DNA of 42,491 bases from Raillietiella orientalis (Eukaryota): the NCBI GenBank assembly GCA_036172245.1, contig JAYWIR010000120.1, positions 62,001 to 104,491 on the forward strand, given 5' to 3'. Position 1 is the first letter of the stretch. Each line of letters begins with the position of its first letter. A model generated the notes under the pieces. The model searched no databases. It was given only the letters and a program-made list of their open reading frames with translations, and was not told where the DNA came from. The position numbers and the translations under genes are program-made. This document shows, piece after piece, positions 3,630 to 41,266 of the stretch.

Positions 3630-4290
3630 AGTTCTGCCGCATTCTGCGGGATTTTTATTCCTCCCTTTACGCGCTGAGACCACCAGAGCGCTCCTCTGCG
3701 CAGCGCCTGCTGCCAGAGGGTGCTCCCGCGTTAAGGGAGGAAGAAATAAACATATTCCTCCAAGAATTCTCGACGGCGGAGATAATCTCCGCTATCACTA
3801 AAATGAAAAAGAACAAAGCACCACGGGAAGACGGCCTGCCAGCTGAATTCTACCAACACTTCGCAGCAGAGCTGGCCCCCCTGGTGCTAAAACTACGTAT
3901 GCTGATCCGTGAACGTGGGGATGTCCCCAACTCGTTCCGGTCAGCTAGAGTACGTCTCCTTCCTAAGGGAGGAGACTTGCGCAACGTTGGCAACTGGCGT
4001 CCCATTACTGTAGTGAATGCGGACGCAAAGTTGCTCGCCAAACTGTGAGCTGAGCGCCTGGCACGGGTTGCGGACTTCGTGGTCAGTCCGGAACAGACAT
4101 ACGCTGTTCCCGGACATACCTTGGAGGCCAACCTGTTCCTCGCCAGCACATTCTGGCAGTTGCAACAACGCGAGGCGCAGCTACGTCGGGAAGGTCCTGG
4201 ACTCTCTATTGATAGGAGGGAGGGAAGCCGGGAAGAAGATGCGGTGCCTGGAGCCCTTGCGGTCACAGACGATTTGCGTAAAGCTTTCGA
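3630..4290 (+). mobile_element. A' host fragment: A-family ORF2 linker/RT (QxCRIL...DLRKAFD)
   Basis: Near-identical inverted copy of about 196-855; bounded by the A 5' end and the B1 3' end. Confidence 0.9.
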
Positions 4291-4508
4291 TTTTCACCCG
4301 GATTTCCCCGGGGCGTTTATTGGAAAATAAACTTTTACAAAGACGTGCGGTGGCTGGACCATTGCTCCAGCCACGCACGAAGAAACACAGAGCCTCCCGA
4401 GTCACCGGTTCGCAGATCGGTACGGTCCACCACGGCAGCAGGGGGAAGGGGGAAAAACAAAAAGCAAAACAAAAAAGAAAAGAAAAGTTGGGAGGGTAAG
4501 GGAAGGGA

Positions 4509-7500
4509 TCAAAGTTGCTGGTGGGGCCGTTGCATCCTTTGCAGGATGCCGTTAAGCTCCTTCTGTATTTCTGGATCAAGGTGGGGCCATCGAGACGCCC
4601 TCCTCAGGAACAGGGAGGCTGGCTGGATGGCACCCTGGTCGCGTTGTCCTCCCGTAGCCTTGCACCAAGCGGTGACGATCCCGCGTAGGCAGCACAAAGC
4701 TGCTAACGAGGCCGCTGGCCGAAGGGCGTCGGCAACGAAGAGGGCTTTCAGTGCGTTCCTGGGGTTGCCGCAGGGGATTCCGATGGCCGCGGCAAAGCGA
4801 AACCAAAGGGGCCGAAGGGCAACGCAATCCACTAGCAAGTGGGGGAGGGAATCCCGTTCCCCACACCTGACGCAATTGGGGTCCATCGCTCCCCAGGTCC
4901 AGTGGTGTGGGCGGGCGTTGCAGGGGAGTCCCCAGTGCTGCAACAGGAGAGTCCACTCCTGCCATTTTAAATGGAGGGCGGAAGTGTTCATGAGCACCGG
5001 GGGCCACTTCAGATGTTCAATGGGAACATCGAGCAGCGTGCCCCAGCGCAGAAGTACATTGGGAGGCGTACTCGGGGTCGCTGCGTCTGTTAACTGGCCC
5101 GTCTTCCACTCTCCCTGCTTCTTCTCCTTCCCGGAGATTTTTATTGTAACCTCCCACTTCGCCGCAACATCGCTGTCCTGATGTTTCACTAGGGAGTCCA
5201 GCGCAGCAGCGAGGGGGGTTCTTCCTGACCACGCTCTCTCCTTAGGATCCTCCAGGATCTCGCGGAGCGTGCAACTTCTGTAACCCCCAAACAGGAACCT
5301 TCGTTCCTGTTGGGAGCGTTGCATGCGGAACTGTGCCCACGTTCGAACAATTTCCTGCAACCAGGCACTACCGTTAAACGGGCGTCAGGTGAACAATCCT
5401 GGGATTTTCCGATACAGCGCAGCCACCCTCCGTAGCTGGAGTCCGCATCGGTTGACGCGGCGACGGAGTGCAAGAAACGACGTCACTCCCGTCTTGCCGG
5501 TAGCTTGCTGGAGAAGGAGACGTGCAGGGACGCACCAACAGGTGCACCACAACTCTGGAACGAGTGCCGACAAGCGGAACTGCAGCTAAAGCTCCAGCCG
5601 CTCCAGCGTCAGGAGGCCCAGACCACCATCCCGACGAGGATCTCACAAGTCCTTTAAGCGGACTCGGGCCCTCACTTTGCCCCAAAGGGCGATACGGAGG
5701 AGGTCCTTTGTCCGCTTTTTAATCCTCTCTGTGAGGGGGCAAACAAAAAGCAGGGGCTGGTGGAAAGGAGCCGCGAACGTGTTCAAAACCGCGGCCCGTT
5801 TAGGCAGGAACAACCTGCCGCCTCGGAACGGGCCGATCGCCGTATCTACTTTTTGGAGGAAGCCATACCACGCTTCCGCAGGGGAGTAGTCCCCCAACGG
5901 CACACCAAGGTACTTGAAGTACCTCACCGTGGGGATCCCCAAACGGACCCAGTCCTGCTGCCCTGCCCACGCCGCACCAACTGGCATCACGGACGACTTC
6001 GCCCTGTTCACCGTAAGTCCGGTTCCCCGATGCAGCAGGTCGAAGAACTCCTCGACCGCCGCAGCCCGGGGTGGACATAGAAAGCAGCAGCAGAAGGTCG
6101 TCCGCGTATGCTGAAACGGCCGGCGTACCGACACAGTCGTGCGGCAGGTGCGCCAGAGTTCCCCTGTACGCTCTCAGTACCAACTCAAGGTAGGTACTGA
6201 AGAGCAAGGGACCCAGGCTGCCAACCTGCCGTATCCCACGCCGCACCGGCACGCCGTGCACGGTCTGCCCGCTGAAAGTAACATTGATGAGCGCGTCGCG
6301 CCAGCAAGAGCGCAGATAGGCCACTAATGAGGCCGGGAAGCCCAAGCGTTCTAGAAGCTCCAAAAGGAGATTCTGGTCGACGCAATCGAATGCTTTGCGC
6401 AAGTCGACTGCGACCGCAAGGGCTCTCTCCCCCACTCGACCATCCAACCCCTTGCCGGCGCACGCACCGGAATTCCGGCTGCCCACCAAGCTCCTTTCTT
6501 GTTTGAGCTCTCGCCAGGTGGAAGCGTGGAACAGGTTCGTCTCCATGCTTCGCCCGGGAACAGCATATGTCTGTTCCGGGCTGATGAAGATGTTGACAAC
6601 ACGTCCCAGACGCTCTGCCCAAACCTTAGCCAGCAACTTGGCGTCCGCATTCACTATTGTGATGGGATGCCAGTTGTTCATGCTCCTCAGATCTCCTCCC
6701 TTAGGGAGGAGCCGCACCTTTGGCGAACGAAACGAGGCGGGAACGTCACCTGTTTCGCGTATCAGCAAGGTGAGTTGCTGTACCAAACGGGTAAGCTCAG
6801 CCGCGAAAGTTCGATAAAACTCCGCGGGCAGGCCGTCCTCCCCTGGAGCCTTTCGCCTCTTGAGCTTTCCGATGGCCGAGGGGTTCTCGTCCATCGTGAA
6901 AGGCTCGTCGATGGTCTTTCTCTGCTCCTCCCCGATCGCTGAAGCGCCTTCCGGAAGCAGGAGTCGTGAGACGTTCCTCTCCGGAGGTGCCCTGGCATAC
7001 AGGGAGGAGTAGTAACTCCGCAGCAGGCCGCGGATTTGGGCAGGTGCCGAGTGCTCCTGTCCCTGATCGTCCAGTAAGCTGGCCGATCCGGACTGCCAGG
7101 CTTGCCTCTCGGCTCTTGCTTTGTATTCCGCCAGCTTGCGGATGTCGGGGGTCCTGCCGTAACGACGGGCCTGCAGGTAGGCTCGTTCGTTACGGACCCC
7201 GGTCCCAAAACCCGTGGGTAGGCGGTGCAGAGGAAACTGGTCGCAGAACTCTTGGACCGACCGCTTGAAGCGGTCCCAATCCTGGAGTGTCCGCAGACTG
7301 AAGCTCCGTATGAACGTGCGGAGATGTTCCGCCGCGTCCGTGAGCTTCAGCCAGTCCCCTGGGAGACGCAACGCTGACGAGGGGGGGCCTCTGTCGCGCG
7401 GATGGATCTCGAGGACTAGCGGGCGATGGTCGGACAGCTCGCACGGAAACTTGCCGCGCGTGCCCACGCGAGGGCACAGGTGCTCGTCAAGAAACACGTG

Positions 7501-8091
7501 GTCAATGATGTCTTCCATCCCCGGTGCACTGGCGAACAAATTACAGGTGTGCACCGCCATGCACACCTCGTTGACCAGGTCACGCTCGACATTCTGCTCA
7601 TCTGGTTTCAGGCGAAGGTTGAAATCGCCTGCAACCAGATGGGCATTCCGCACGCCTGCTTTGGTCAGCCAGTCTCGCCGGAGGGCAAGGAAAAACTCTT
7701 TCCTCGTCCTCCTGTTCATCAGGTCCTTGCCGCTCAGTGCGTACACTTTCGTGACGATCAGATCGATCGAGTCGGACGACCTGAGAGTCAGCTGGCCGAC
7801 ACGACCGTGATCGTCGAACCGCACGCCCCGAGTTGCGGCCTCGACGGCTGGCCGAAGCAGCTAGGCGACACCGCAACTTTTCGCTCTCCCACACCTGTAC
7901 CGTAGCCGCTCTCCGGAGAACCGTTTGATTTCTCGCGCTTGTTCTACAGAGATCACGTGGATCTCCTGCAGCAGCGCAAGGTCGTAGGATTCCAGAAGGG
8001 CGGCCATGTCTCGTCTCCTGCCGGCGTCTGTCATGCCGTTCACGTTCCAAACGGCGATGCGCAGACGACGGCAGGAGGAGATTCCCGGCAT
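4509..8091 (-). pseudogene. B1 ORF2 (APE-RT-Cys/His finger), frameshifted
   Basis: WNVNG, LLQE, GDFN, DHVF, SDH, KAPGEDG, DLRKAFD, YADD, FKYLG, CVRCGERDSLPHLLVDC. Confidence 0.93.
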
Positions 8092-9766
8092 TACTGCTAG
8101 GAAGATTAAGGTGTGGGGGAGCCCTACTCTTGCGAGGCGGGCGGGATGTCCATGGGGGTTTCGGCCTTCTCAGGCACCTGAGGCACCTGTTCGGCCTCCA
8201 TCCCCTCCATCCCCTCCGTGTCCGTGCGTGGGAGTCTCTCGGGCGACGGGTCTTATGAGTTTCCCACGCTCATGGCACCCCCGCTTGCGGAAGCCATCTC
8301 TTCCCCTTCGACGTGGGAGACGAGCTTCCTTGGCTTTGTGGACTTACGTCCAGCCTTCTTGAGCGGTGCCGTGGAAACGGAGGCTGCGCTTCCGGCCTCC
8401 ACCTCGGGGTCGGAAGTGGGGGAATCCTGAGGAGAGGCCGGACGCCTTAAGGCCTTCTTGCCAGCCTGGGAGGGTTCTGGCTGCAACGAGGCTGCCAGCT
8501 CCTCCGCGGCTCGCGCGAAGGCTACGTCATCGATGTTGGTGTCGTTGACGGACGCCGCCGCCGGCTCGCTCCCCTCGCTGTTGACAGTGTCAACAGAGGG
8601 GAGGTCATCGGTAGCGGCGAGTTCTTTCCGGCAGCGTTCGGCAACATGAAGAACGCGTTCGACAACGACCCTGCACTCTGTAATAATCGCGCTACCCTGC
8701 TCTTTCTTCTTCTGTTGGTAGGCGATTTTCTTTTCCATCCTCCTCTCCTTTTTGATTTTTTGGCCGTTGCCACTTGCCACCCAGTCTCCTGGCCTGCTAC
8801 CTCAACTTTTTCGGCGTTCGTCGCCGGGGTCTCGGGTGCGGCCTGGGTTTTGGGCGCGGGTAGCACAGCCTTCGCGGCAGCTTCCGCCGCCAGCGTTTTC
8901 TGCAGAAGCCGGGCGCGTTTTTTAAGGTTTCTCTTGGAAACCACCCGCACTGCTGCTTTTGGTCACACGTCCCTCGTGTGGCCCATTGTGCCGCATACTT
9001 GGCACTGCACATTGGGACACCTCTTTTTGAGGTGGCCCGACGTATTGCAGAAGCCACAGTATTTCGGCTTCCTTACATACCAGAGGTCGACGGTTTCGCC
9101 TTCGACCACCAGTTTGTGGGGAAGAGTGCAGCCCTCCCGAACGGTCACGCGCGCAGCAGTTAGGCCGTGTTGCAGCCTTGTGTAGTCCTCGAAAGGACTT
9201 ACTTTCGTCCACTGCGCGTGGACCGTTCCGAACTGTTCCAAAGCGGCGCGAACCTGTTCTTTGCGCATTCGCGCGGTGACGCCTAACAGGTGGACCACCA
9301 TGCTGCGGTGCGCCGTAGTGGGGAGGAGCCTGCGCGTCCCCATCACAATGGGGGTTTTAAGCAGTCGTTGGGCCAGCTCTGCATTTTTGCAGATGACCTC
9401 AACGTACTGACCCCCGCTGCGGATGGTCATAGCGCTGAGCTCCTCCTCTTTCACATCGAGAGCGCGCATGCCCTTCGAGAAAGCGCGCGCGCTCTCTAAA
9501 GAATATAAATTGCCGACCTTGTAGAACAATGATGGGTTGCACCCCTCCTCTACATAGGCCGAGAATTCCGCCGCGGCTGCAGGCGATGGCGCCGACACAA
9601 CGGCGCTCCACGCTTGCGCTGCAGCGGGGACCGATTCTGTGGGGGCGGATGCCCCCACCTCCATCGCCTCTGGGGGCGACGTTGCCGCCGCTTCCTGTCT
9701 CTCCATCGCCTCTGGGGGCCGCGTTGCCGCTGCCCCCTGGCCATCCTTGGTGGTCGCGTCAGACAT
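8091..9766 (-). pseudogene. B1 ORF1, frameshifted
   Basis: CGFCNTSGHLKKRC and CQVCGTMGHTR..; TAATG junction at 8093-8089. Confidence 0.88.
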
Positions 9767-9860
9767 CGCTGCCTGATCGACCACCGAACCACACGACGCT
9801 TGCACTGGGGGAGACTTCCTGGCACGAGGAGCACCGAGAAAACTCGTTCATCCTGGAGCG

Positions 9861-11978
9861 CACAAGGCATTCGACTTTATAGACCAGGAACTCCTCTTGG
9901 AGCTCCTGGGTCGCATGGGCTTCCCACCCTCCCTGATTTCCTACCTGCGCTCTTGCTGGCTGAATGCGATGATTGCTGTCTCTATCAGCGGTCACAAGGT
10001 GTATGGCGTGCCGGTGCGGCGGGGCATAAGGCAGGGAGATAGCCTCAGCCCCCTGCTCTTCAGCACCTACTTTGAGTTGGTGCTGAGAGCGTATAAGGTG
10101 AGTTTGGCTCCCTTGCCCAGCTCGTGTCCCGGCACGCCTGCCGTAGCAGCGTACGCCGACGATCTTCTGCTCTTGTTGCCAATGTCCACCCCGGCAAAGG
10201 CTGTCGGGGACTTCTTCGATCTGCTCAGTCGCGGGACCGGACTGCAGATCAACAGGGCTAAGTCGTCGGTGGTGCCAATAGGTGCGGCGTGGGCATGGCA
10301 GCAGGACTGGGTCCGTCTGGGGATCCCCATGGCGACGTGCTTCAAGTACCTTGGTTTGCCGTTGGTGGACTACTATCCTGCGAAAGCGTGGTCCAGCTGC
10401 CTTCAAAAAGTCGAGACGGCGATTGGCCCGTTCCTGGAATGCAAGTTTCACTTGCCCGAACGGGCCGCGGTTTGGAACACCTTCGAGGCCCCCATCCTCC
10501 GCCCCTTGCTTTTTGTTTGCCCCCCAACCGTAGAATCGAAGAAGAGGACAAACAAAATCCTCCTCCGTATCGCCCTTTGGGGTAAGGGGAGTCCATGAGT
10601 CCCTCTGAAGGAGTTGAGTGCTCCGCGTCCGGACGGCGGTCTTAGCCTCCCGACGCTGGAGCACGTGGAGAAGCAGCTGCGGTGGCGAACCCTCGCCATC
10701 GCAGCGAAGATGTGGAGCACCCCTTGGTGCACTCCGGCCCGCCTCCTGGCCAGCCGTGTGTCCCGGTGCGATGGACTCGCGTCTTTTCTTCTGAGCCGTC
10801 GCTGGAAGATGCGAAGATGCGGCCTACTGCTAGGGCGCATGGCAACATTTTCCAAGGAGAACAGCTGGATGGTTTGCTGCCCCGCCAACTCCCCCGCCTG
10901 GCTGGAGGAGAACATCGGAACGTGGGCAGTGGTGTACCAGAGGAGCCACGAAACGTGGAATCGTCTCCGATGCAGCCCCTACGCCCGCTGCACGCTGCGT
11001 AATCTCCTGGAGAGTCCAGCAAGATGCACGTGGGCAGAGACGACCTGCCAACTTCGGCGCTGCCCTTCCTGAGGAGGGCACTTTACAGCAGCCGGACGCC
11101 AAGTTGGCAAGTCTCCTGCTGCATTGAGGGACGCGAGAAGTTAAGTAGCGGCTGGACAACAGGAGAACTGGCCGACTCCACGACCCCGAGCGTCCAGCCG
11201 CAAGGATTAGCAGCATGGGGCGAGCTGCTCGCCATCCCCAGGGATGAGCTGAAGTGGCCCCCGGTGATGAAGGAATCCAGGATCCTGCCCCTCAAGTGGC
11301 AAGAGTCGGCGTTGCTTTTGTTGCACTGGGGTCTATCCTGCAACGCGCGCCGCTTCCACTGGACGAGGGGAGCTGTGGATCCTGCGTGTGCCAGGTGCGG
11401 GGAGCGGGAGTCGCTTCCCCACCTCTTAGTTGAATGCTCTGCCGTCCGGATTCTTTGGGATCGTCTTAAAACGGCTTTCGGGATACCGGATGGTGGCAAC
11501 GTAGGATGTGTTTACAGTCTTGTCTTCGTGCATAACGGCGTCAGTCCAGCTGCAGCCCTTGCAACACTTTGCTGCATTCGTGGTATAATGGCAGCTTGGA
11601 GTGATGTCGAAGATGAAGACTGCATCGTGAGGAACGTCATCGAGTATGCTTTTCGCTTTTTACAGAGAGCTACCCGATGGCTTCATCTAGGGAAATTGAA
11701 AATGGAACTAGAAGGCATCCTGCAAAGGATGGGCTCTCCTAGCAGTTTTCTGTGATCCCTTCCCGGCCCTCCAAACTACTTTTTCGTTTGTTTTTCTGTT
11801 TTTATTTTATTTTTGTTTTCTCCCCCATCCCCCTCCACTGCCGAGGAGAGCCACACCGGGTTGCGTCCCGGTGTCCCAGCAGTTCCTCTATTGCGTGGCC
11901 GTCAGTGGTGCCTTGTACCAGGTTCTGTACTGACTGTTGAAATGTTTTTAATAAACGTCCTGGCGTATCCGGGTGGCA
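9861..11978 (+). mobile_element. C: 3' half of a LINE (RT from HKAFD to 3' end)
   Basis: RQGDSLSP, YADD, FKYLG, CARCGERESLPHLLVEC, stop 11755, T-rich 3'UTR, AATAAA 11950. Confidence 0.92.
11950..11978 (+). terminator. 3' terminal signal: AATAAA + hairpin (representative of 7)
   Basis: AATAAACGT-CCTGG-CGTAT-CCGGG-TGGCA. Confidence 0.75.
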
Positions 11979-15014: not shown

Positions 15015-15324
15015 GCGCAGGAGATCGAACGGATCTCCGGAGGGCGGCTGTGGTACAGGTGTGGGAGAACGAAAAGTTGCGGTGTCGCCTACCTGCTTCG
15101 GCCAGCCGTCGACGCCGCGGTTTGGGGCTTGCGGTTCGACTATCACGGTAGTGTCGGCCAGCCTACACTCAGGTGGTCCGACTCGATCGGTCTGATCGTC
15201 ACGAACGTGTACGCACCGAGCGGCGCGGACCTGATGAACAGGAGATCGAGGAAAAAGTTTTTCCTTGCACTCCGGCGCGACTTGCTGACCGAAGCAGTGC
15301 TGCAGGCGATTTCAACGTTCGCCT
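15015..15324 (+). mobile_element. B2a: B-family APE fragment (host)
   Basis: AQEIERISGGRLWYR...AGDFNVRL, matching B3 at about 35293-35622; resumes at 26886. Confidence 0.88.
15309..15324 (+). repeat. 16-bp TSD, left copy (ATTTCAACGTTCGCCT)
   Basis: Exact match to 26886-26901. Confidence 0.92.
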
Positions 15325-16698
15325 TCATACGAGTCGGACGTGATTTCGTGTCGCTCCGTGGTTCCGCTGTTTGGCTGTGTTTGTGAATCCCACTGCACAT
15401 CCCTAAGGATGAGCAGTGAACAACGCAACGTGGAAGACCTCGAGCCTGTGGTTCAGGAACTTTTCGCAGCTGGAGTGATGGCGACAACGTGTGCGAGCCC
15501 GCCCCACCGGCCAGGAGCTTTGCGGACGTGGCTTCTTCTGCAGCCGTACAAAAATAGCTCCCCGACTAGGCGGAGATGCAAGCCCATGTAGCCCAGGGCT
15601 ACAAGCCTGCTCTCCGCTATAACGTAATTGGTGTAGGAAAGGCTCGGGAGGAGTTCGCGGACGAACTCTACCGTGTGGGAGTGCGAGAAGAGGACCTCAT
15701 AGCACTCATGCCTGTTCCAGCATTGGGCTATGTGAAAGTCCGATGCAAGCAGGCTGCACTTGTGCAGAGGCTTGTCCGCACTCCTTTGACTTTCCGCGGA
15801 AAGAAAGTTTTTCCTTCCGCGATGGACGAGTCTTTTGTCGTTGTTCTCTCGGCCATGGAGCCGGAGATCAACGACAAACAGTTGATGGACGCGTTGGCGA
15901 AATTCGCAACCGTTCATGCGTTGTGGGGGAACGAGAATTCCTACAGGAAATTCCCTTTTGTACACACAGAATTTGCTGCGATTAGGGTAACCGTTCCTAA
16001 CCGCCGCACGCTGTCTGCCACGCTACAGGTCAACGGCACGGTCGTTCATCTGTGGTTCGTTGGCAAAACTTGCGCGTGCGAGCAATGCGGCAAAGAAGGG
16101 CATCGAGGTAAGGAATGTTCTTCCCCGAAGTGCCGCTACTGTAAGGAGTCCGGGCACGAAATTAGAAAGTGCCCGGACATAAAGAAAAAAAAAGGAGGCT
16201 GCTAGACTCCGGCGTGCCAAAGAGTTCGCAAAGGAGGAAACAGCATCCTCAAAAAAAAAAAAAACAGGGAGGCTCGCGAAAGGCCGAAGATAAAAAAGGC
16301 CCGAACGCGGTCTCAAAGTTGGCTCCCTCAGCATCAAAACCCAAAAAGAGCAATTGCGCGGTACGGAAGCCATTTTGAAAAGGGCGAGAGGGCTCCGCGC
16401 GTACCGTTACTGTCCCAGTAGCTGATCGAGGAAACGCTACTCGCGAAATGGAATCAGTTACACCAGTCGCTCCGTGCGACAAGGCGAAAGAAGGATACGC
16501 GGGAGAAAATTGCGTGGTAACCGTCTCCTTGAGGGCTCTGTCCATTTCGGAGGCTTCAGTCAAAAACCTCACGAAGGCGTTTGCAGGTTCGTCGAAAAAA
16601 GCCAACGAAAGCTGCGTTCCGTCGCCTCAAAACACGCAGCAACCAGCTGCATCCTCCCCAACAAGACAGGTTTCTTCAAGTTCCACAAGGAGTGGAAC
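15325..16698 (+). mobile_element. D 5' part: 5'UTR + ORF1 (ATG about 15409)
   Basis: GGACGTGATTT at 15336; CEQCGKEGHRGKEC and CRYCKESGHEIRKC. Confidence 0.88.
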
Positions 16699-16770
16699 AA
16701 ATTTATTTTTCAAGAATTTTTCTACAAAAACATTCACGCTACAGTCTCATTCATACCATTTGCACTGTTT

Positions 16771-19700
16771 TTACCACCCTGAAGTCCATGGGTTCACATG
16801 TTCTGCACTAATGGTGGGTTTCCTGCTGTTTGGTCTCGAGCGTCGTCTATCTATCCTCTTCAGGATGAATCGGAACGTCCAGGCTTGGATTTTCCCACAG
16901 TTTCTAACGCCGATTTCCCTCTTCAGGAGCCCTTGTAGGATCTCCATCGGTGGTGCGGCTCTGCTGGCTTTCCTCATTTTCCACCACCGCACAAGTATGG
17001 CGGTGATGAAGAGGGCGATGGTCGTCCTCACCATGGGATTGTAACAGGGAACATTACCATCCCCCTGAAACATACCGGAGAGGATCTCCATTACGGATCT
17101 GTTCGTGAGTCCGATGATCCTTTTCAGGATCAGTCAGTCATGAAGCAATGTGGGTCACGTCAAGACGTGAAGTCTCGTGTCGTTGTCTCCACATGCCGTG
17201 CAAACTCGATCTTCCCGTCTTCCAGTATAGTACTGCAATCGGGAATCACTCTGGATTCCTCCATGATAAAACATCAGGAGGTCATCCTGGGTGCTCCGCG
17301 GAAGGTCACTTCTCCAGAGCATCGTGCCGATCGCTAGCAGGTTGACCCGGTCGCTTCCGTAGCAATCGGCGGCTTCCTGGAGGGCACTAATATCACTGTG
17401 TTCTTCTTGAATTAGTCTTCGGAGGTTTGTTCTGGTTACCCTGGACCACGCAAAGTCGTTGTGGTTGATCCACACCTTGCAAGCCATGTGGGAAAACCTT
17501 CCTAACATCATCTCTATATACCTAAGTATACGAGTGTGATGTAGGTACCCTCCTCGTTTCCAATCCTGGAATCGTTGTAGGGTAACTCTGGACCGCTGGT
17601 GGATCCAGCTTCTCGTGTCAGGTGGGACAGGAAGCATCCAAAGGATCACCAGGATGGACTCGTCCTGCCAGAGTTTTCTACTTCTCAGCACGATCTTGAT
17701 TTTGTGCCTTCGCACCAGCCGTTGCTTCTTCGTTCAGGTTAGGTCGATTTTTTTCCATTCGCCTGCTCGGCCTAGCAGCGCAGTCATCAGGCCTTTCGAG
17801 AAGTTCAACAACAAAGCGTAGGCCCTGTGCGCCGCATACGGCCAGTCATCCCAGTGAGTGGCAATGTCCAGGATGTGTCGCGTATACATGATTTCTATGG
17901 AGTGTGCAAGCGACTACATCCCGGAACCTCCTTCTTACCTGGGACGACACAGGGGTTTTAGTCGAACTCTTGGGCGATAGTGGCCCCACAGTGTTTTTCT
18001 CTGCATCTTGTCGAACTCCCTCGTGGTGTCCTTGTTCATCCTAGCGAAGGCCGTTCCAAAGAGCACTCTTGGAAGGACTACTCCGTTCTAATATGTTGGC
18101 CTTTCGTTTCATTCCAATGTCCGTTCCGGTGTACTTCGCTGCTTCCTTGGCCGTTTTCCCTAGGATCTCGGTCCACAATAGCTTCGACGCGGAGTGGTAG
18201 CCAATGTAGACACCTAGGTACTTGGCCGTGTTCACCGTTCGGAATCCTCTCCCCGCTAGAGCAAAGAGATCGAGGATTCCAACGGGCAAGAGCTGGCTTT
18301 TCTGGGCGTTGATCTTTAGACCCAGGCGTTGATCCATCAGGTCTACCACATCCAGAAAAGCTCGTTGATTAATCTCTCCCTTGATAAAGAAGAGTAGATC
18401 ATCAGCGTATGCCAGTTGAGTAAGACGCTGGCCATCGATTGTTATGCCTTGCAGTCGTCCGCTCTTCTCGATAAAAGACGACAACGCCTCCATGTAGATG
18501 ACGAACAGCATCGGACTTAGCGAATCGCCTTGCCGGACTCCCCGTTTCATCCGGATTGCTGCCGTCTCCTGGTTGTTGATTTTGATTCAGCAGTTCTGGT
18601 TCTGGAGTACCACTCTCACGAAGTTGCTAAAGTGTTCCGGAAGGCCTGGCTTCTCCAGAACCTTCAGCAACATCCCTTGGTCGATGGAATCGAAAGCCTT
18701 CTCCATGTCAGTGAACACCAGCGACAGGTTCTCTCCGATGTATCGACTGAGTCCAACAGTGGCCTGGGCACACTTGACATTGTCCGATATGTGACGTCCA
18801 GGAACTGCACACGTTTGGATCGGAGAGATGAGCTTCCACATGACCCTGCCTAAGCGGTTGGACCAGATCTTCGAAAACCACTTGGCATCGGAGTTCAGGA
18901 TTGAGATTGGCCTTCATTGAGCGATCTCTGTTGGGTCGCCTCCTTCCGGCAACAATCTCATCCGACTCTTGTAGAAGCACTCAGGTAGTCTGCCTTCTTA
19001 ACGGATGCAGAGGGTCAACTGGTGGAACAAACGCAGGTAGGCATGCAGGTACCGCTGATAGTGCGTGATGGGTACGCTTTCAGGGCCCGCTGCCACGTCC
19101 TTGCGTTGTTGACCAAACGCAGCCTTCACTTGTCTTCGGAGAACTCCTCCTCCAGTCTAGTCCGCTGGAGATCGTCGGTCCTCTTCTCGAGATAGCTCAG
19201 AAAGGCCTGTTGACTAGATCGACAGAGATGTTGTTGCCTGAAGTGCTTCGTGTAATGCCTTTGATAGGCTTCCACGATGTCCTCAGACGACTGTCGCTTT
19301 TGACCGTCGTACTGAATGCAGAAGATATCTGTTGCGACATTTCTCTTCTCCAGCACGCCGACTTCTTCTTTTATGTTCTTGAAGACGTACCGACTCTCGT
19401 ACTGATCGAAGTACTTAGAGAGTGAGCGATCTTGGATGTTCAGCTCCCGTTACGCCTCCTGCCTCATGCGCCTATCTCCGAACTGCATGTTTGCAAACAG
19501 GTGTATCCTGTGTTTCCGGCTGTCCCAGTCGGCGCCTTTTCGGATTGTTGTTGACTTCAGAATCGTCTCCAGGACAGCCTGATATCCGGGATGGGTGCCG
19601 AACCAGGCAAGCATGCTGATGAGCGCCTCCCTATATCCTTGCCTCCGCCGAGGATTCTCCGTTATTAGGGATCACCGCACCAAGGGGTGATGGGACAACG

Positions 19701-20328
19701 TGGTCATAATGTCTCGAAAACCCTGAATGCGATTCCCAAGTTCGGTGCTGTGGAGGACGTGATCGATCGGCTTGTGGCTTGCTGTTCGCCACATCAGTCA
19801 AAACTCTTCCGATAGCCGCCGATACGCCGTCCTTCCTCTGGCGTCTTGTGAATAGGTGATCTCATCCAAGATGTTGAGATCGCCAGCAACAATCACGAGG
19901 TCCTTGGGGGCAACCTTTTCACGGAGTGCTCCATGAAGTGCCTCCGCACAACGAAGTTTTAGCCTGTGCGGCCCGTACACGTTCACCAGTATAAGGTGAA
20001 CAGTTGCGGACCAGGCCAGTCGCACGCCGATGATTCGTCCGGGTTGGGGACAGAACACTTCCAGGATAGTGGGGGCTAAGTGGTTCTTTATTAGCACCGC
20101 CACACCCTTCGTGTTCCGTTCTCCTTCGTTGAGGAACATCTGCCCGTTGAATCGCCGTTCCATTCGCTGGCTTATCTCCAGACCCATCCTGTAAGTCTCC
20201 TGCAGGCACACGATGTCTTGTTGTGCGATGGTCCGCACAATCCTTCTTCTTTTTCCCTGGTCGACCACACCGTTTACGTTCCAGGAGGCGATGTTCATCC
20301 CCCTGGCGGTCGATAGGGAAGAGGCCAT
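16771..20328 (-). pseudogene. J ORF2 (APE-RT-finger)
   Basis: ASWNVNG, CLQET, NVYGP, GDLN, IDH, DMEKAFD, RQGDSLSP, YADD, KYLG, CTACG; many stops/frameshifts; 3' end approximate. Confidence 0.88.
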
Positions 20329-20341
20329 AAAAGGGGAAGAC

Positions 20342-25900: not shown

Positions 25901-26574
25901 ACAGTAGCCATCCGGCAAGGTGGGAGTTCTCCTGCACCATCGCAGGAAGAAAAAAACCAGTTGGCGAATGGACCACGAGCCAGCTTGCGGATGCCGCCAC
26001 TCCTCGTGCTACATCAAAGGGGTTTCTTCGGTGGGGAGAAGCTCTTGGTGTTGCCCCCGAGGAACTGATAGTCCATTTCTGCTGTTTGGACGGTTCGGTG
26101 TTTCCCCTTGCATGAATGCAAGATGTTTTGCTTTTTTTGCACTGGGAATTGCGCTACAACCAGCGGCGCCACCGAGTTTCCGGTTGGGTGGCTTCTCCCT
26201 ACTGTGCCCGGTGCGGAGCGACGGAGTCGTTACCGCACCTTATTATGGACTGCGGTGCCATCCAGGAACTGTGGAGGAGGCTAGCAGCAGCTCTTCCGTC
26301 ACCAGGAGACACCGCTCGAGAAGTGCTGCGACGGTTCTTCCAGACACAAGGACTTTCGATGGCTGCGACGATTTCCACTGTTGGTTGCATCCGCGCCATC
26401 GTCACGGTCCGAGACGTGCTGGAGAATACTGGACAGCAATGTTGTGTCACCAAGAAGGCAGCTGACTTCATAAGGTCGGCAACTGGGTGGCGACACTTAT
26501 ACGAGGACACAACGGAGGAGCTAACCGTTATCCACCGCCGGATCAGCAACGGCTTAGAACGACGAAATCAATGA
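22982..26574 (+). pseudogene. D ORF2, full span, few lesions
   Basis: WNVNG, LLQE, NIYAP, DFN, PDHIF, SDH, DLHKAFD, YADD, CARCGATESLPHLIMDC. Confidence 0.93.
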
Positions 26575-26770
26575 TCCGCCCTCATTTTATTTTCGACTGG
26601 TTTTTTTGTTCTCGCGTCCTTTGCCCGATACGCTCCGCAGTCCTTTTGGTGCTAGAACTTTTGAGTTTCTGGGTGAGTGCGGAGCAACACCAAAGTTCCC
26701 TGGAACACTCCTCCCATTCACAAATTTTTTTTTTTTGGACTCCCCTCAGTCGTCCATGTTCTTCCGTTTT

Positions 26771-26788
26771 CCTGGCCTGCGTGCCAGG
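26771..26788 (+). other. 3'UTR RNA hairpin with CUGCGU loop (representative)
   Basis: CCTGGC-CTGCGT-GCCAGG; equivalents with different stems in other lineages. Confidence 0.72.
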
Positions 26789-26885
26789 GGTGAATCTCCG
26801 ATGCATGTTTTCAGAGTTGAGAGCTCGAAACAATTGTTTTCAGCTCGTTTATGTCAATAGACGTCCCAAAGTGACCGGGTGAAAA

Positions 26886-26901
26886 ATTTCAACGTTCGCC
26901 T
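26886..26901 (+). repeat. 16-bp TSD, right copy
   Basis: Exact match to 15309-15324. Confidence 0.92.
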
Positions 26902-27880
26902 GAAACCAGATGGGCAGAATCCCGAGCGTGACCTGGTCAACTAGGTGTGCATGAGGGTGCAAAGCTGAAATTTGTTGGTCAGTGCACCGGGAATGGAAGA
27001 CAGCATCAACCACGTGTTTCTTGACGATCACCTGTGCCCTCGCGTGGGCAGACGCGGCAAGTTACCGTGCGAGCTCTCCGACCATCGCCCGATAGTCCTC
27101 GACATCGATCCGCGCGACAAGTGCCCCCCTCGTCAGCGTGGCGTCTCTCAGGGGACTTAATGAAGCACTTAGACGCGGCAGAACATCTCCGCACGCTCAT
27201 ACGGAGCTTTAGGCTGCGGACACTCCAGGATTGGGACCGCTTCAAGCGGTCGGTCCAGGAGTTCTGCGACCAGTTCCCTATGCACCGCCTACCTACGGGT
27301 TTTAAGACCGGAATCCGTAACGAACGAGCCTATCTGCAGGCCCGTCGTTACGCCAGGATCTGTGACATCCGCAGGCTGGCAGAATTCAAAGCGGGAGCCG
27401 AGAGGCAAGCCTGGCAGTCCGGATCGGCCAGCTTGCTGGACGATCAGGGCCAGGAGCACTCGGCAACCCCCCAAATCCGCGGCCTGCTGCGGAGTTACTA
27501 CTCCTCCCTGTATGCCACTGCACCTCCGGAGAGGAACGTTTCACGACTCCTGCTTTCGGAAGGCACTCCAGCAAACGAAAAGGAGGAAAGAAAGACCCTC
27601 GACGAGCCTTTCACGATGAACGAGATCCTCTCGGCCATCGAAAAAGCTCAAGAGTCGCAAGGCTCCAGGGGAGGACGGCCTGCCCGCGAAGTTTTACATA
27701 ACTTTCGCGGCTGAGCTTACCACCTGGTACAGCAACTCACCTTGCTGATAAGCGAGAGAGTTGACGTTTTCGCCTCGTTTCTTTCGGCAAAGGTGCGGCC
27801 TTTCCCTAAGGGAGAAGATCTGAGGAGCATGAACAACTGGCGTCCCATCACAGTAGTGAATGAGGATGCCAAGTTGCTTG
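26886..27880 (+). mobile_element. B2b: continuation of host B2 ORF2 to NEDAKLL
   Basis: Collinear with B1/B3 ORF2. Confidence 0.9.
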
Positions 27881-31333: not shown

Positions 31334-33415
31334 TTTGTCACCCGGGTGCGCCGAAGCGTTTATTACAAACTATCCGGGAACAGAGTTCCCGGACAAAGGG
31401 GAAAACGAGATACGAAGGAAGTGGGATTCCCGACAGGCAGGTCGATATGCTGAAAGTCCGGAACGGGAGGGATGGGACCACAAATACACTACTATAAAAA
31501 ATAAAAATAAAAATATGGAGGGCAGATGATAGGAGTCTTTGGTGAGTCCGTTCCTTCCTTTCAAAACCGGTGATGGATGCCAGCGATCTCTCTCCTTACG
31601 TCCTGTGGAAGATGGGCCCACTCGGCAGCCGACGACATGCTTGCGCTGGCTAATCCGGTGGGATGACGAACGATGGCCAGCCTCTCCAACTCTCAATGGG
31701 CCTTGTCGATGGCGCGAATGCAACACACGGTTGCAACGACAGCACCCGAAGACTGACGTGAAGAAGCGGCGCATCAATTCCCTCTCGGTGTCCCCCTGGT
31801 GCAAGAGAGCTGAGGCCAGCCTCCGCCAAAGTCTTTGGAGGGCACCGCAGTCCAAAAGCAGGTGCGGGAGCGTTTCCACTTCCCCGCACCGCTTACAGTT
31901 TGGTGAGACGACTCCCCCGGAAACACGGTTCTTCCGCTGGTTGAAGTGACAACCCCAATGCACCAGCATGATGACGTCCTGCTTCCACGAAAGGGAGAAC
32001 ACAGTAGTGTTCAAACAGGAGGGAAGGACCACAAGTTCTTCGGGGGGCTCACGCAAGTGTTCGCTCCATCGAAGGAGTCCCTTCGAGATGTGGCGAGGCG
32101 TGGCGGCGTCTGCCAGCTCGCGAGTCCTCCAGCCGCCAATAGGTCGTGTTGTTCCTGCAATGGTGCAGGCGACCTCCCATCTCGCTGGTTCGCAGCTGTC
32201 ATCTCTTGCCCTGAAGGCTGACAGTGCGTCGGCGAGGGGGGTGAGAGCCAGGCCGGTCCACTTCTCCTGGCTGCTTCAGACCTCATCCACCGTGCAGTAC
32301 GGGGAGAGGTGAACGCAACGGAGTTCCAGGAAAGAAACATCCTGGTGCTTTGCCCAGCCATACAACGGTTCCTGCCGCCAGGCTTGAAAGTTCGTTGGGC
32401 GGCAGAGGATCCATTCCTGGGCTGCCAGGAGCAGGTAGAGGGGTTTCAACGGGAAACCGAAACTTGTCGTGGGGTGCTCCGTGTGCGGACGCAGCGACAG
32501 AAGTCCATCGCTGCCTGTGCAGCGCCGCAGAAGCAGGCGCGCGGGAGCGCACCACGGAGTGGACCAAAGGTTGGCGCACAGGGCCAACATCCGAAGCTGC
32601 ACCTGCAGCTCGATTCTCTATAGCGTCAGGATGCCTAAGCCAGCATCCGGACGCGGAGCCGCCAAGTCTTTCGGGCGGATCTTGGACCTTGCAGGACCCC
32701 ACAGAGCGTTCCTCAACAGGATATGCGCTTGGAGCTTCGCCGAGTAGGAAGGCGGGCAAACATAAAACAGGTGGTGCAAGAGGGGCGCTACGAAGGTGTT
32801 CCATATCGCAACCCGCTCCAACAGGAGGAACCTGCCATGCTGGAACGGGCTCAGCGCACTCGTAGCCTTCCGAAGGCAGTCCGACCACACTTCCACTGGG
32901 CTGATGTTCTCTAGCGGAACTCCCAGATATTAAGTGGACGAAGCGGCCGGGATCCCCAGGCGGATCCAGTCGGACTGCCCCTTCCACGCCGCAGCAATAG
33001 GTACGACCACGCTCTTGCTCCTGTTTACGCTCATTCCGGCTCCCTAACTGATCAGCTCGAAAAAATCCTCGAGACTGGACGCCGGGGTGGTCATGGGTAA
33101 CAGGAGAAGCAGGTCGTCAGCATAGGCCACCACGGAGGGCGTTCCAGAACAAAGGCTCGACAGGTTGGCCAGCGTCAGCCTGTACGCACTCAGCAACAAC
33201 TGAAACAAGATCCTGAAAAGCAACGGGCTTAAACTGTCGCCCTGCCTGATGCCTTGCCGCACCGGCACGCCGTACACGTGGCAGCCGCTGAAAGAGATGG
33301 AAATAAGCGCGTGGCGCCAGCAAGCGCGCAAATACGCCACGAGGTGCACCGAGAGACCGGGGCGCTCCAGCAGCTCCAGCAGGAGATCCTCATTTACGCA
33401 GTGGACCGCCTTTCG
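31334..33415 (-). mobile_element. H: 3' half of a LINE (RT from RKAVH, a decayed KAFD, to 3' end)
   Basis: RQGDSLSP, YADD, CKRCGEVETLPHLLLDC, AATAAA 31364-31359. Confidence 0.9.
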
Positions 33416-36400
33416 TGCTCCAGGGTGGCCGTGTTTTCTCGGTGCTCCTCGTGCCAGGAAGTCTCCCCCAGTGCAAGCCACGTGTGGTTCGGTGATCGAT
33501 CAGCAGCGATGCCTGACGCGACCACCAGGGATGGCCAGGGGGCAACGGAAACGCCGCCCCCAGAGGCGATGGAGATGGGGGCATCCGCCCCCACAGAATC
33601 GGTCCCCGCTGCAGCGCGGGCGTGAAGCACCGTTGTGTCGGCCCCATCGCTTACAGCGGCGGCGGAATTGTCGGGCAATGTAGAGGAGGAATACAACCAC
33701 TCATTGTTCTACAAGGTAGGCAATTTATATTCTTTAGAGTGCGCGCGCGACTTCTCGAAGGGCATGAGCGCTCTCGATGTGAAAGAGGAGGAGCTCAGCG
33801 CTATGACCATCCGCAGCGGGGGTCAGTACGTTGAGGTCATCTGCAAACAAGCAGAGCTGGTTCAACGACTGCTTAAAACCCCCGTGGTGATCAGGACGCG
33901 CAGGTTCCTCCCTATTAAGGCGGACCGCAGCATGATGGTCCACCTGTTAGGTGTTAACGCGCGGATGCGCAAGGAACAGGTTCGCGCCGCGTTGGAAAAA
34001 TACGGAACGGTTCACGCGCAGTGGGAGAAAGTAAATCCCTCCGAGGACTACACGGGGCTGCAACACGACCTCACGCCTGCGCGCGTGACCGTTCGGGAGG
34101 GCTGCACTCTTAACCACAAACTGGTGATCGAAGGCGAAACCGTCGACCTCTGGTATGTGGGGAAGCCGAAATACTGTGGCTTCTGCAATACGTCGAACCA
34201 CCTCAAAAAGAGGTGTCCCAATGTGCAGTGCCAAGTATGCGCCACAATGGGTCACATGAGGGAGGTGTGCCCAAAAGAAGCAGTGCGGATGGTTTCCAAC
34301 AGAAACCTTAAAAAACGTGCCCGGCTACTGCAGAAAAGGCTGGCGGCGAAAGCTGCCGCGAAGGCTGTGCCACCCGCGCTTAAGGCCCAGGCCGCACCCG
34401 AGACCCCGGCGAACAACGCCGAACAAGTCGAAAGAACTAGCCAGGAGCCTGGGTGGCAGGTGGCTACGGCCAAATAATCAAAGAAGGAGAGCAGGATAGA
34501 AAAAAAAATCGCCTACCATAGAAGAAGAAAGAGCAGGGTAACGCGATAATTAAAGAGTGCAGCGTCGTCCTCGAACGCGTTCTCGATGTTGCCGAACGCT
34601 GCCAGAAAGAACTCGCCGCTACCGACGACAAATCCTCTGTTGACTCTGTCAACAGCGAGGGAAGCGAGCCGGCGGCGGCGTCCGTCATCGACACCACCAT
34701 CGATAACGTAGCCTTCGCGAGAGCCGCGTAGGAGCTGGCAGCCTCGTTGCAGCCAGAACCCTCCAAGGCTGGGAAGAAAGCCGTAAGGCATCCTGCCTCC
34801 CCACAGGAATCACCCACTTTCGACCCCGAGGTGGATGCCGGAAGCGCAGCCTCCGTTTCCACGGCAACGCGCAAGAAGGCAGGACGTAAGTCCACAAAGT
34901 CAAGAAAGCTCGTCTCCCCCGTCGAAGGGGAAGAGATGGCTTCCGCAAGCGAGGGTACCATGAGCGTAAGAAACTCTCGGGACCCGTCGCTCGAGAGACT
35001 CCCACGAGCGGACACAAAGAGGATGGAGGAGGTGGAGGCCGAACAGGTGCCTCAGGTGCGTTAGAAAGTCGAAATCCCCGTGGATATCCCGCCCGCCTCG
35101 CAAGAAGCGGGCTTTCCTACACCTTGATCTTCCCAGCAGTAATCCCGGGAATCTCCTTCCGCCGACGTTTGCGCATCGCCGTTGGAACGTGAACGGCATG
35201 ACAGACGCCGGCAAGAGACGAGACATGGCCGCACTTCTGAAGCCCTACGACCTTGCGCTGCTGTAGGAGATCCACGTAATCTTCGCAGAACAAGCGCAAG
35301 AGATCGAACGGATCTCCGGAGAGCGGCTATGGTACAGGTGTGGGAGACCGAAAAGTTGCGGTGTCGCCTTCTTGCTTCGGGAGTCTGTCGAGGCCGCGGC
35401 TCGGGGCACGCGGTTCGAAAATCAAGGTCGTGTCGGCCAGCTGACTCTCACATGGTCCGACTCGATCGATCTGATCGTCACGAAAGTGTGCGCACCGAGC
35501 GGCTCGGACCTGATGACCTGGAGGGCGAGGAAAGAGTTTTTCCTTTTCCTCCGGCGAGACTGGCTGACCGAAGCAGCCGTGAGGAATGCCCATCTGGTTG
35601 CAGGCGATTCCAGCGTTCGCCTGAAACCAGATCGGCAGAATCCCGAGCGTGACCTGGTCAACGAGGTGTGCATGACGGTGCACACCTGTAATTTTTTCGC
35701 CAGTGCACCGGGGATGGTAGACAGCATTGACCACGTGTTTCTTGACGAGCACCTGTGCCCTCGCGTGGGCAGGCGCGGCAAGTTACTGTGCGAGCTTTCC
35801 GACCATCGCCCGCTAGTCCTCGAGATCCATCCCCGCGACAGGGGCCCCACATCGTCAGCCTGGCCTCTCCCAGGGGACTGGCTGGAGCTCCCGGACGCGG
35901 TGGAACATCTCCGCACTTTCATAGGGAGCATCAAGCTTGGGACACTCCAGGAGTCGGACCGCTCCAAGCGGTCGGTCCAGGAGTTCTGCGACCAGTTCCC
36001 TCTGCACCGCCTACCTACGGGTTTTGGGACCGAAGTCCGTAACGAACGAGCCTACCTGCAGGCCCATCGTTGCGTCAGGACCCGCGACATCCGCAGGCTG
36101 GCGGAATACAAAGCGGGAGCAGAGAGGCAAGCTTGGCAGTCCGGATCGGCCAGCTTGCTGGCCGATCAGGGCCAGAAGCACTCGACACCCGCCCAAATGC
36201 GCGGCCTGCTGCGGAGTTACTACTCCTCCATGTATGCCAGGGCACCTCTGGAGAGCAACGTCTCACGACTCTTGCTTCCGGAAGGCGCTCCAGCGATCGG
36301 GAAGGAGGAGAGAAAGACCTTCGACGAGCCATTCACGATGAACGAGATCGTCTCGGCCATCGGAAAGCTCAAGTGTCGCAAGGCCTTAGGGGAGGACGAA

Positions 36401-36713
36401 CTGCCCGCGAAGTTTTACCAAACTTTCGCGGCTGAGCTTACCCCCTGGTATAGCAACTCACCTTGCTGATACGCGAGACAGTTGACGTTTCCTCCTTGTT
36501 TCTTTCGGCAAAGGTGTTGCTGCTCGCTAAGGGAAGAGATCTGAAGAGCATGCACAACTGGCGTCCTATCACAATAGTGAATGAGGACGCCAAGTTGCTA
36601 GCTAAGGTTTGGGCAGAGAGGTTGGGACGGGTTGCCAACATCTTCATCAGCCCGGAACAGACATATGCTGTTCCCGGGCGAAGCATGGAGGCGAACCTGT
36701 TCCACGCTTCCAC
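33416..36713 (+). mobile_element. B3: B-family 5' part (ORF1 33509-35142; ORF2 35142-36713)
   Basis: Leader TGCTCCAGGGT-GGCCGTGTTTT; collinear with B1; ends at NLFHAST. Confidence 0.92.
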
Positions 36714-36747
36714 CTATGTATCTCCTGCTGCTGCAGGAGATACATAG
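36714..36747. repeat. Perfect 15-bp inverted repeat at the B3/K junction
   Basis: CTATGTATCTCCTGC-tgct-GCAGGAGATACATAG. Confidence 0.9.
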
Positions 36748-39128: not shown

Positions 39129-41244
39129 TTTTGAACTCGGTTGCGCCGGGACGTTTATTTGTAAAAGCGAACCACAATCTTCAAGGCAAATTCATCCTTT
39201 CGAGACACAAGAAACGCCCATACAGTAAGTTCAGTTCAGAAAGATCACCGGCACGCAGGGTGCCTTCCAAAAGAAAGGAACGGAAGGAGAGGGATGCAGA
39301 ATAAACAAAACATAAGGGAGCAAACAAAAAAAAACAGTGAAGGGTGGGGTCAGGGATCTTTGGTAGCAAACGTTCCTAATCTTTCTAGAAGCGCTGTTTG
39401 ACAATGGCGACTTCCCTGGAGACTTTTCTGGGCAGATGAGGCCACCTGACAGCTGTTTCATAAGGTTCGCAGCGATTCTGGCGGCGTCCGTTCGCTGCGA
39501 GCTTCCTTTAAATTTACGGCGGGCGATCACGATGGCGCGGATGCAAGAGATTGTTGCGATAACAGCGCCTTTATCCAGTCCGACTTTGCTGAAGAAGCGT
39601 CGAAGCAGGTCTGTGCCAGTGTCCTGAAAACGACGTAGTGACTAAGCAAGTCTCCGCTATACTCCCTCAAGTCACTTCACTCAAGGAGCAGGTGCGTAAG
39701 CGATTCTATCGCCCCGCACCTGAGGCAGTTCGGGGAGACGACTCCCCCTGTAACCAAGTTTCTGCGCTTATTGAACTGGAATCCCCAGTGCAGAAAAAGA
39801 AGAACATCCTGTTTCCATCGAAGCGGGAACACGGAGCTGTCCACACACAAGGAAGGGACCACGAGATCTTCGAGGAGTAATCCAAGAAACTCACTCCAAC
39901 GAAGAAGTCCCTTTGCCAGGTAACGAGGAGTGGCAGCGTCTACCAACACGCTCGTTCTGCAGCCGCTCAGCAGTCTTCTCACTCCTGCAATGCTGCAGAA
40001 GAGCTTCCACCTTGCCGGTTGGCTACTGTCGTTGTTTGCCCTGAGAGCAGACAGCGCTGCGGCGATGGGTGAGACGACTATCCAGGACCAAAGCGACCAG
40101 TCCTGTACGATCACTCCTAGCGGTTCGCGTAAGAGGCCCTGTAAGGGTCGCAGTTGCTCTGGGCGTACATCCAAAGTTGACGTCCAGTGCTCCAGAGCTT
40201 CCTGCTGCCAAGCATTCCAATTGGAGGGGCGGCAGGAAATCCAGGCATGGGCTAACAGCAACGAGGACAAATGCCTCAGCGGGTAGCCAAATCCAGTTCT
40301 CCGGCGAAGGTTGGGCGGCAGCAACGAAAGCAATCCTGCACTGCCGACACATCGCTGGAGAATATGACGAGCCGGAGCACACCAGTGACTAAACTACAAT
40401 TTCCCACATAGGGATAGAAGCCGGAACTGCACTTGCAGTCCAATCTTCTGGATGCTCAGGATGCTCAGATCTGCGTCCTGGCATGGCGCCACCAAATCCT
40501 TAAGGCGAACCCTGGATCGCGCAGCGCCCCACAAGACCTTACGTAGCAGACGCTGCGCCCGGAGTTTAACCACATAGGGAGACAAGCAAACAAAAAATAA
40601 GGGGTGGAGGAGAGGGGCAAGGAAAGTGTTCCATATGCACGCCCTTTCCGGAAAGACGAACTTGCCTTCCAGGAACGTGCCTAGAGCCATCTCTGCTTTT
40701 GAAGACGGGCCGACCACGATTCAGACGAGCAGAAGTCGCCCAACGGTACGCCAAGGTACTTGAAGTACCTGACCGTGGAAATCCCCAGACGGATCCAGTC
40801 GGCCTGTCCCTCCCACGACGCTCCCACCGGCACGACGGAGCACTTCGCCCTGTTAACGCTCATGCCCGCTCCACGACGGATCAGCTCGAAGAAGTCTTGG
40901 ACCGAGTCCGGCGGAGTAGACATGGGCAACAGAAGCAGAAGGTCGTCGGCGTATGCTGCCGCGGACGGAGTGCACGGAGAGGCGCTGGGCAGGATGGCCA
41001 GCGTCAGCCTGTACGCTTTTAGCGCCAACTCAAAGTAGATGCTGAAGAGCAACGGGCCTAAGCTGTCGCCCTGTCTGATGCCGCTGCGCACGGCCACTCC
41101 GTACACACGGCAGCCACTGAAATACAAGTTGATAATCGCGTGGCGTCAGCAAAAGCGCAAGCACAGGAGAAGATGATTCGGAAGCCCATAACGCTCCAGG
41201 AGCTCCAAGAGGATTTTCTGGTTTACGCAGTCGAATGCTTTGTG
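39129..41244 (-). mobile_element. E: 3' half of a LINE (RT from HKAFD to 3' end)
   Basis: RQGDSLGP, YADD, FKYLG, CLRCGAIESLTHLLLE, AATAAA 39159-39154. Confidence 0.9.
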
Positions 41245-41266
41245 TGCTCCATGGTGGACGTGTTTT
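41229..41266 (+). promoter_or_regulatory. Putative Inr/DPE-like core promoter spanning the host/element junction (representative copy)
   Basis: gcA(41229)gtc with GGACGTG at 41256 (+28); motif recurs at 3618, 9849, 12000, 15003, 15336, 29301, 33427. Confidence 0.55.

Follow-up and report, generated by a model that had tools for sequence, protein, structure and literature searches.

The 42,491-nt stretch of Raillietiella orientalis DNA analysed here (contig JAYWIR010000120.1, positions 62,001 to 104,491; hereafter the window) is made up of fragments of long interspersed nuclear elements (LINEs) nested one in another, with a GC content of 0.51-0.61. Pfam matches are found in 12 of its 47 long open reading frames (ORFs), all of them to RVT_1, Exo_endo_phos, zf-CCHC or zf-RVT. 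The window was mapped by tblastn with translated pieces of B1, a complete copy of one family termed B (whose numbering is referred to below as B1 coordinates), combined with self-BLAST. Family B is present in four copies (B1, B2, B3 and B4), three of which have a true 5′ terminus, and the main finding concerns where these copies end: all four visible B termini, i.e. three of three 5′ ends and the one 3′ end, lie at the codons of the KAFD motif in the reverse transcriptase (RT) of LINEs. The B copies and the RT fragments that adjoin them are located as follows.

A′: 3627..4290 (plus strand), RT fragment from ~680 nt upstream of KAFD to the ...TTCGA of RKAFD; flanks the B1 3′ end on the left
B1: 4291..9860 (minus strand), complete B of 5,570 nt; 3′ end ...CCGGGTGAAAA at 4291, 5′ end at 9860
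B1's own RKAFD codons: 6387..6401 (minus strand), CGCAAAGCATTCGAT, without interruption
Host C: 9861..11978 (plus strand), RT from the H codon of HKAFD to the normal 3′ end (...CCGGGTGGCA); the RVT_1 match in the ORF 9777-10598 begins at residue 29, the H of HKAFD
B4, left piece: 15015..15324 (plus strand), B1 coordinates ~1922-2251; its left neighbour is the 5′ end of M (15014, minus strand)
B4, right piece: 26886..27880 (plus strand), B1 coordinates ~2235-3251; cut off by the 3′ end of K
Host H: 31334..33415 (minus strand), RT from the decayed RKAVH codons (33415) to the 3′ end ...CCCGGGTGACAAA at 31334; lies inside L
B2: 33416..36716 (plus strand), from the 5′ terminus to B1 coordinate ~3347, then interrupted by F
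Host E: 39130..41244 (minus strand), RT from the HKAFD codons (41244) to the 3′ end ...GAGTTCAAA at 39130; lies inside F
B3: 41245..42491 (plus strand), from the 5′ terminus to the end of the window

At the C locus, the 5′ end of B1 at 9860 is followed by CACAAGGCATTCGAC (HKAFD) from 9861; at the H locus, CGAAAGGCGGTCCAC (RKAVH, decayed; minus strand, 33415 to 33401) adjoins the 5′ end of B2 at 33416; and at the E locus, CACAAAGCATTCGAC (minus strand, 41244 to 41230) adjoins the 5′ end of B3 at 41245. All three visible B 5′ termini therefore share one position, next to the first base of (H/R)KAFD, and lie head to head with the host in antisense orientation. The only visible 3′ joint involves a fourth RT fragment, A′, which closes with CGTAAAGCTTTCGA at 4290, after the ...TTCGA of RKAFD; base 4291 (T) is ambiguous and may belong either to the codon or to the A-tail of B1. 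In homologous coordinates, this 3′ joint lies 14-15 nt downstream of the 5′ joints. Position and orientation of the four joints are thus observed directly, and reading the sequence across them bears out the preliminary description of this DNA, which had placed the 5′ ends antisense at a single base before (H/R)KAFD and the one 3′ joint (4290/4291) just past RKAFD of a fourth host. By our own arithmetic (~8 homologous sites over 2 × 42,491 positions), the chance of each further 5′ end falling on the same base and strand is ~1e-4.

A three-way MAFFT alignment of the C, H and E loci, taken in host orientation and divided into 100-column bins, places the change in similarity at the joint. On the B side, identity is 76-97% per bin apart from two bins, namely bin -183 (C-H 53%, H-E 54%, C-E 88%) and the outermost one (49-53%). 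On the host side, it is 60-79% over the first six bins and lower further out. Overall, the three loci agree at ~90% of positions on the B side and at 60-75% on the host side. Compared pairwise over 1,204-3,300 positions, the B copies are 87.6-90.4% identical.

The hosts themselves are independent of one another, which can likewise be seen directly when the 760 nt downstream of KAFD are compared. C is closest to B1's own RT (76% identity, support 0.84), H is closest to the uninterrupted element G (72% identity, support 0.99) and E branches next (support 0.996), with C-H, C-E and H-E identities of 64-69%. Because the three hosts do not form one clade, as a single ancient composite of B and host would need to, their loci are not duplicates of one insertion. 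The preliminary description had already regarded C, H and E as clearly different lineages, with segmental duplication as the main threat to this view; the tree, in which C groups with the RT of B1 and H with G so that the hosts are interleaved with uninterrupted elements, removes that threat. Between B1 and B3, ORF1 differs at 66 of 882 nt with a dN/dS of 0.41, meaning that part of their divergence arose in active lineages and that the copies are separate retrotransposition products rather than a duplicated block.

The remaining elements of the window, several of which enter the definition of the true ends of B, are these.

A: 1..3626 (minus strand), full-length 5′ end at 3626, 3′ part beyond the window start (tblastn map and 5′-end alignment); Exo_endo_phos match in the ORF 489-2093; own RKAFD codons 209-195 intact (KAFD scan)
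Gap: 11979-11988, 10 nt (TCGCCGAAAG) from the 3′ end of C to the 5′ end of N
N: plus strand, 5′ end at 11989
M: minus strand, 5′ end at 15014
G: 15325..26885 (plus strand), full-length, in sense orientation within B4; contains J; HKAFD 24685-24699 intact
J: minus strand, distant LINE nested in G; EKAFD 18703-18689 intact
K and adjoining fragment: 27881-29289 (minus strand), K 3′ end at 27881
L: 29290-31333 (plus strand), 5′ end at 29290; carries H inside
F: 36717-39129 (plus strand), 5′-truncated; split by a short minus-strand element

B1 is laid out as ORF1 with CCHC knuckles, followed by an apurinic/apyrimidinic endonuclease-like domain (APE), RT and zf-RVT, with several frameshifts. Its RT is supported by an RVT_1 match (E=6.7e-15, in the ORF 5800-7860); the zf-CCHC and zf-RVT matches are weak and under the Pfam cut-off. 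The APE region of B has no Pfam match at E<=0.05, yet it aligns to the Pfam-supported Exo_endo_phos domain of A and keeps the motifs WNVNG, QEI, GDFN and SDH in that alignment.

That the visible B ends are true termini is an observation which draws on the whole window. A GGACGTGTTTT-like motif has seven matches at one mismatch or fewer, against 0.81 expected; the copies in B1 and A carry more mismatches and are visible only in the 5′-end alignment. Eight full-length 5′ ends from at least five lineages (B1, B2, B3, L, N, M, G and A) start ~11 nt before this motif, at 3626(-), 9860(-), 11989(+), 15014(-), 15325(+), 29290(+), 33416(+) and 41245(+), the row of A having a 3-nt gap within the ~11-nt stretch. 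For G, the end is established by separate evidence, as 16 nt of B4 sequence (ATTTCAACGTTCGCCT) are perfectly duplicated at its insertion. Since the joints between B and its hosts keep that same motif distance, the base before the H/R codon is the first base of B. At the other end, B1 shows the terminal consensus AATAAACG...CCGGGTGAAAA, common to seven of seven aligned 3′ ends; a 5-bp hairpin is predicted at these shared ends, without compensatory change, and the tails consist of only 2-5 A. One candidate reading of the joints, namely that the B 5′ end is a diverged antisense piece of RT, was rejected, since identity upstream of KAFD is limited to 3 of 20 residues and the Pfam match begins only at the H codon.

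These alignments also yielded some observations on end structure in general. The architecture common to the eight 5′ termini is ~11 variable nt, mostly starting with TC or TG, and then GGACGTGTTTT. The ATG of ORF1, in a conserved GCAGCGATGCCTGA context, follows only ~95 nt from the 5′ end, i.e. the 5′ untranslated region is very short, and the share of full-length copies in the window is unusually high. A search of the whole window against Rfam gave no match at the gathering threshold; a single match, at the B3 5′ end, is at chance level (E=0.67), and the exact 5′ termini showed no Rfam ribozyme. The 3′ ends at 4291, 11978, 26885, 27881, 31334, 37669 and 39130 all read AATAAACG(Y)CCC..CCGGGTG(R)(M)AA. 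Such similarity of RNA ends across lineages that are 60-75% identical in RT would permit cross-mobilisation.

Taken together, B is probably an autonomous LINE with APE and RT whose integration, by target-primed reverse transcription, is directed to a single defined position within the RT genes of LINEs already in place. The standard form of this process provides the basis for deducing the order and positions of nicks from the geometry of the ends. In such a scheme, the B endonuclease would nick the RT-sense strand within the KAFD codons (5′-AARGCNTTCGA^Y), and the freed 3′-OH would prime cDNA synthesis on the 3′ end of the B RNA (...CCGGGUGAAAA). A second cut would be made on the opposite strand, 14-15 nt upstream and just before the H/R codon, where the full-length cDNA would be joined. 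The predicted outcome is a B element antisense to the host RT, which would be split after KAFD with its (H/R)KAFD codons duplicated. The offset of 14-15 nt is in line with the duplication length seen in the window (16 nt, at G). Going beyond the joints as such, we infer the nick positions, the endonuclease as the source of specificity and the validity of the pattern across the genome.

How much sequence such an endonuclease would need to recognise can be gauged from the sites it left alone. The window contains 55 TTCGAY and 11 GCNTTCGAY sites; six of the latter are KAFD sites, the site in G (TTT) being outside the pattern. B ends are found at KAFD sites only, pointing to a specificity beyond the hexamer, and with four ends the resolution stops at ~9-10 nt. 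We put at about even the chances that B is a LINE-homing LINE in the full sense, i.e. one whose integration machinery recognises a sequence longer than 10 nt within the most strongly conserved coding stretch of its relatives' RT gene (its own included), and which inserts antisense and inactivates its target; this would offer a harmless multicopy landing site and drive the formation of nested clusters of the Zepp type.

Several points weigh against a dedicated target at KAFD. To begin with, there are only three to four events, all of which lie in one 42-kb window. B1, the sole copy with both ends visible, has flanks (A′ and C) of different lineages: A′ (3628-4290) aligns to A (858-196) without gaps over 663 nt with 30 mismatches (95.5% identity), and C is 73% identical to A over 209 comparable nt. 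In the would-be duplication around B1, the positions overlap by 14-15 nt and the copies differ at 4 of 14. As the flanks of B1 come from different hosts, a second event must be assumed; candidates are recombination or an assembly join of two B copies, an integration that bridged two cut sites, or a fold-back origin of A′. The last of these comes into play because the 5′ end of A adjoins A′ at 3626|3627, so that A′ could be the fold-back product of the integration of A. B4 has no informative end, since its left edge is the 5′ end of M, indicating that M inserted into B4.

Other points concern the specificity as such. Half of the eight visible KAFD sites are empty (those in A, G and J and B1's own), and the APE of B is ~60% identical to that of A, with no obvious extra DNA-binding domain. 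Every visible insertion in the window is into another LINE, so the pattern is in part not specific to B, and by our own count and arithmetic 11 of 13 pairs of insert and host are antisense (binomial P ~0.01). C, the nearest relative of B, sits away from KAFD sites, and the insertions of other families, among them C and also H, the sister of G, are at other positions. Finally, B's own site (CGCAAAGCATTCGAT TGCGTC, 6401-6387) fits the target as well as the host sites do. The preliminary description had taken the KAFD codons as the target of B and the insertions as a knockout of competitors. Its first part is supported by the four of four termini at KAFD and by a 14-15 nt stagger that fits one cut; the knockout part finds no support, as no discrimination between self and non-self is visible and B's own site matches the target equally.

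Whether KAFD is recognised as an extended site or only appears so depends on how the alternatives fare. A regional cue might send B to the LINE cluster, where an endonuclease preferring ~6-9 nt (e.g. GCNTTCGA^Y) would encounter a sequence that is nearly unique to KAFD within LINEs. This is unlikely in our estimation, even though all visible insertions are in LINEs, the nick sites of the other families share only a loose T/G^ pattern and the APE of B is not unusual. In favour of such a preference, GCNTTCGAY has just 11 occurrences in the window, six at KAFD sites; however, the five GCNTTCGAY sites outside KAFD and the ~48 other TTCGAY sites are all without a B end, a test that is weak with four ends. 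The difference between such a hot spot and a dedicated target lies only in the length of the recognised sequence.

A less probable explanation holds that the joints are not simple insertions at all. They could have arisen in a single event on two templates, akin to twin priming or a jump of the B cDNA to an antisense LINE strand, or by later recombination, with the parts joined at KAFD. In twin priming, or 5′ inversion, of L1, an inverted 5′ segment is joined head to head to a 5′-truncated 3′ segment, both coming from one RNA and with varying breakpoints. Six full-length 5′ ends in the window do adjoin a 5′-truncated LINE head to head, the flanks of B1 are not from one host, and A′, an inverted 95.5% copy of A right at the A 5′ end, could be a fold-back product. 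The arms at the B joints differ from those of L1 inversions in that they belong to unlike lineages (~90% identity on one side against ~65% on the other, hence not one RNA) and meet at a fixed breakpoint. Nor do the outer flanks represent one target: where L and F overlap, their resemblance is remote (local score 56), and the sequence to the right of C has no relation to A′. The complement of the B 5′ end is also without similarity to the RT upstream of KAFD, in keeping with the 3 of 20 residues noted above, and the B1 3′ end adjoins an upstream RT half that ends exactly at KAFD, which insertion predicts and twin priming does not. More improbable still, and in our view hardly credible, is an artefact, either through duplication of an ancient composite of B and host whose B parts were later homogenised or through mis-joined repeats in the assembly. 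The region is highly repetitive, and a mis-join within B could account for the mismatched flanks of B1; against this, uninterrupted elements stand between the hosts in the tree, and the sequences of the three junctions diverge on the B side as well as on the host side, leaving no long common word at which an assembler might jump.

Insertion of B at the KAFD codons has counterparts among known elements. The R1 and R2 LINEs of ribosomal DNA home to one base of a conserved multicopy sequence, which they disrupt, by target-primed reverse transcription with a fixed cut offset. B would share with them one-base homing and the fixed offset; in R1 and R2, by contrast, the target is a host gene, and R2 uses a restriction-like endonuclease. 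By analogy, B may be said to act like a Tx1L- or R2-style homing element, but with a LINE RT motif as its target and in antisense orientation. B would also resemble Tx1L and Tx2L of Xenopus laevis (Tx1 clade), which are APE-encoding LINEs with a defined site inside another transposable element, the target of Tx1 being given as the Tx1d DNA transposon (Cosby et al. 2019, PMC6719617). Transposons are counted as one kind of target of specific LINEs, and the specific groups of the APE type are said to be the clades Tx1 and R1 (Kojima and Jurka 2015, PMC4640811). The target of Tx1L is a DNA transposon, whereas B would insert into the part of other LINEs that encodes RT.

For the window as a whole, the Zepp and ZeppL elements (L1 LINEs of green algae) offer a close parallel, as they too form nested clusters of LINE in LINE. 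Zepp elements are said to nest by targeting existing copies and so to build tandem arrays of mostly 5′-truncated 3′ ends (Craig et al. 2021, PMC8226300), and clusters spanning 1.5-42.3 kb at 61% GC have been described (Blanc et al. 2012, PMC3446292). The same-orientation tandem arrays of the former account are not matched here, where 11 of 13 pairs are antisense and eight 5′ ends are full-length. Unlike Zepp in that account, the elements of the window have 3′ ends with only 2-5 A, and one family sits at one fixed coding motif.

Database searches point to a family that is not confined to the window. The close-relative protein search returned a single match to the B RT, a protein of 619 aa (P0013) on a 2.9-kb public metagenome contig that is 72% identical over 341 residues and whose frame runs uninterrupted across LRKAFDCVDQ; from this match it follows that family B exists outside the record of this window. 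A wider protein search gave 10 matches of 23-30% identity, i.e. distant relatives, and P0013 itself had one relative among genome contigs (26% identity, L001). The protein Atlas contained only generic APE and RT clusters. Residues 1-75 of the junction-spanning ORF had no match in the protein database. Among metagenome contigs, B ORF1 gave 128 pattern matches and no relatives, and a 23-nt pattern from the B 5′ end gave no match; a 38-nt 5′ pattern gave none among viral contigs, and the collections searched yielded no further B copies. Logan contigs of one run (X1, word share 0.19), compared with 3500-12100 at 85% likeness, are uninformative either way: none of the 6 of 178 loose ends listed coincides with 4291 or 9860, and neither of these joints is spanned by a listed piece.

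Known targets of sequence-specific LINEs include rRNA, snRNA and tRNA genes, spliced-leader exons, microsatellites, telomeres and a DNA transposon. Literal word searches of the literature, which are no proof of absence, found no LINE with a fixed target in the RT coding sequence of other LINEs. If true genome-wide, the pattern would clearly exemplify a retrotransposon family that lives at the expense of its relatives and disables them, and would provide both a natural endonuclease of the APE type that recognises a long site and a sequence-level mechanism for the growth of LINE-only clusters. Clusters of this kind have been proposed as centromeres in some green algae.

Some further features of the cluster are worth recording. 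A and A′ constitute an inverted repeat, 196-858(-) / 3628-4290(+), of 663 nt and 95.5% identity, whose plus copy A′ begins at the 5′ end of A; it may have arisen by fold-back during integration, or A′ may be another copy of the family of A, used as a host. The insertion of G into B4 falls on the codons for GDFN, a conserved APE motif, and has its perfect 16-nt duplication at 15309-15324 / 26886-26901; the 3′ end of K (27881) lies within the B4 codons for N.DAKLL, a conserved RT motif. A rule of one motif per family, with G at GDFN and K at DAKLL, was considered and dropped, as the sisters H (of G) and C (of B) insert elsewhere. At the joint ~12240, N (plus strand, ~250 nt from its 5′ end) meets M (minus strand, in the linker between APE and RT); as this joint is internal to both and fits no simple insertion, it indicates a deletion or rearrangement in the cluster. 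C and N, lastly, follow each other in the same orientation 10 nt apart, the sole tail-to-head arrangement in the window.

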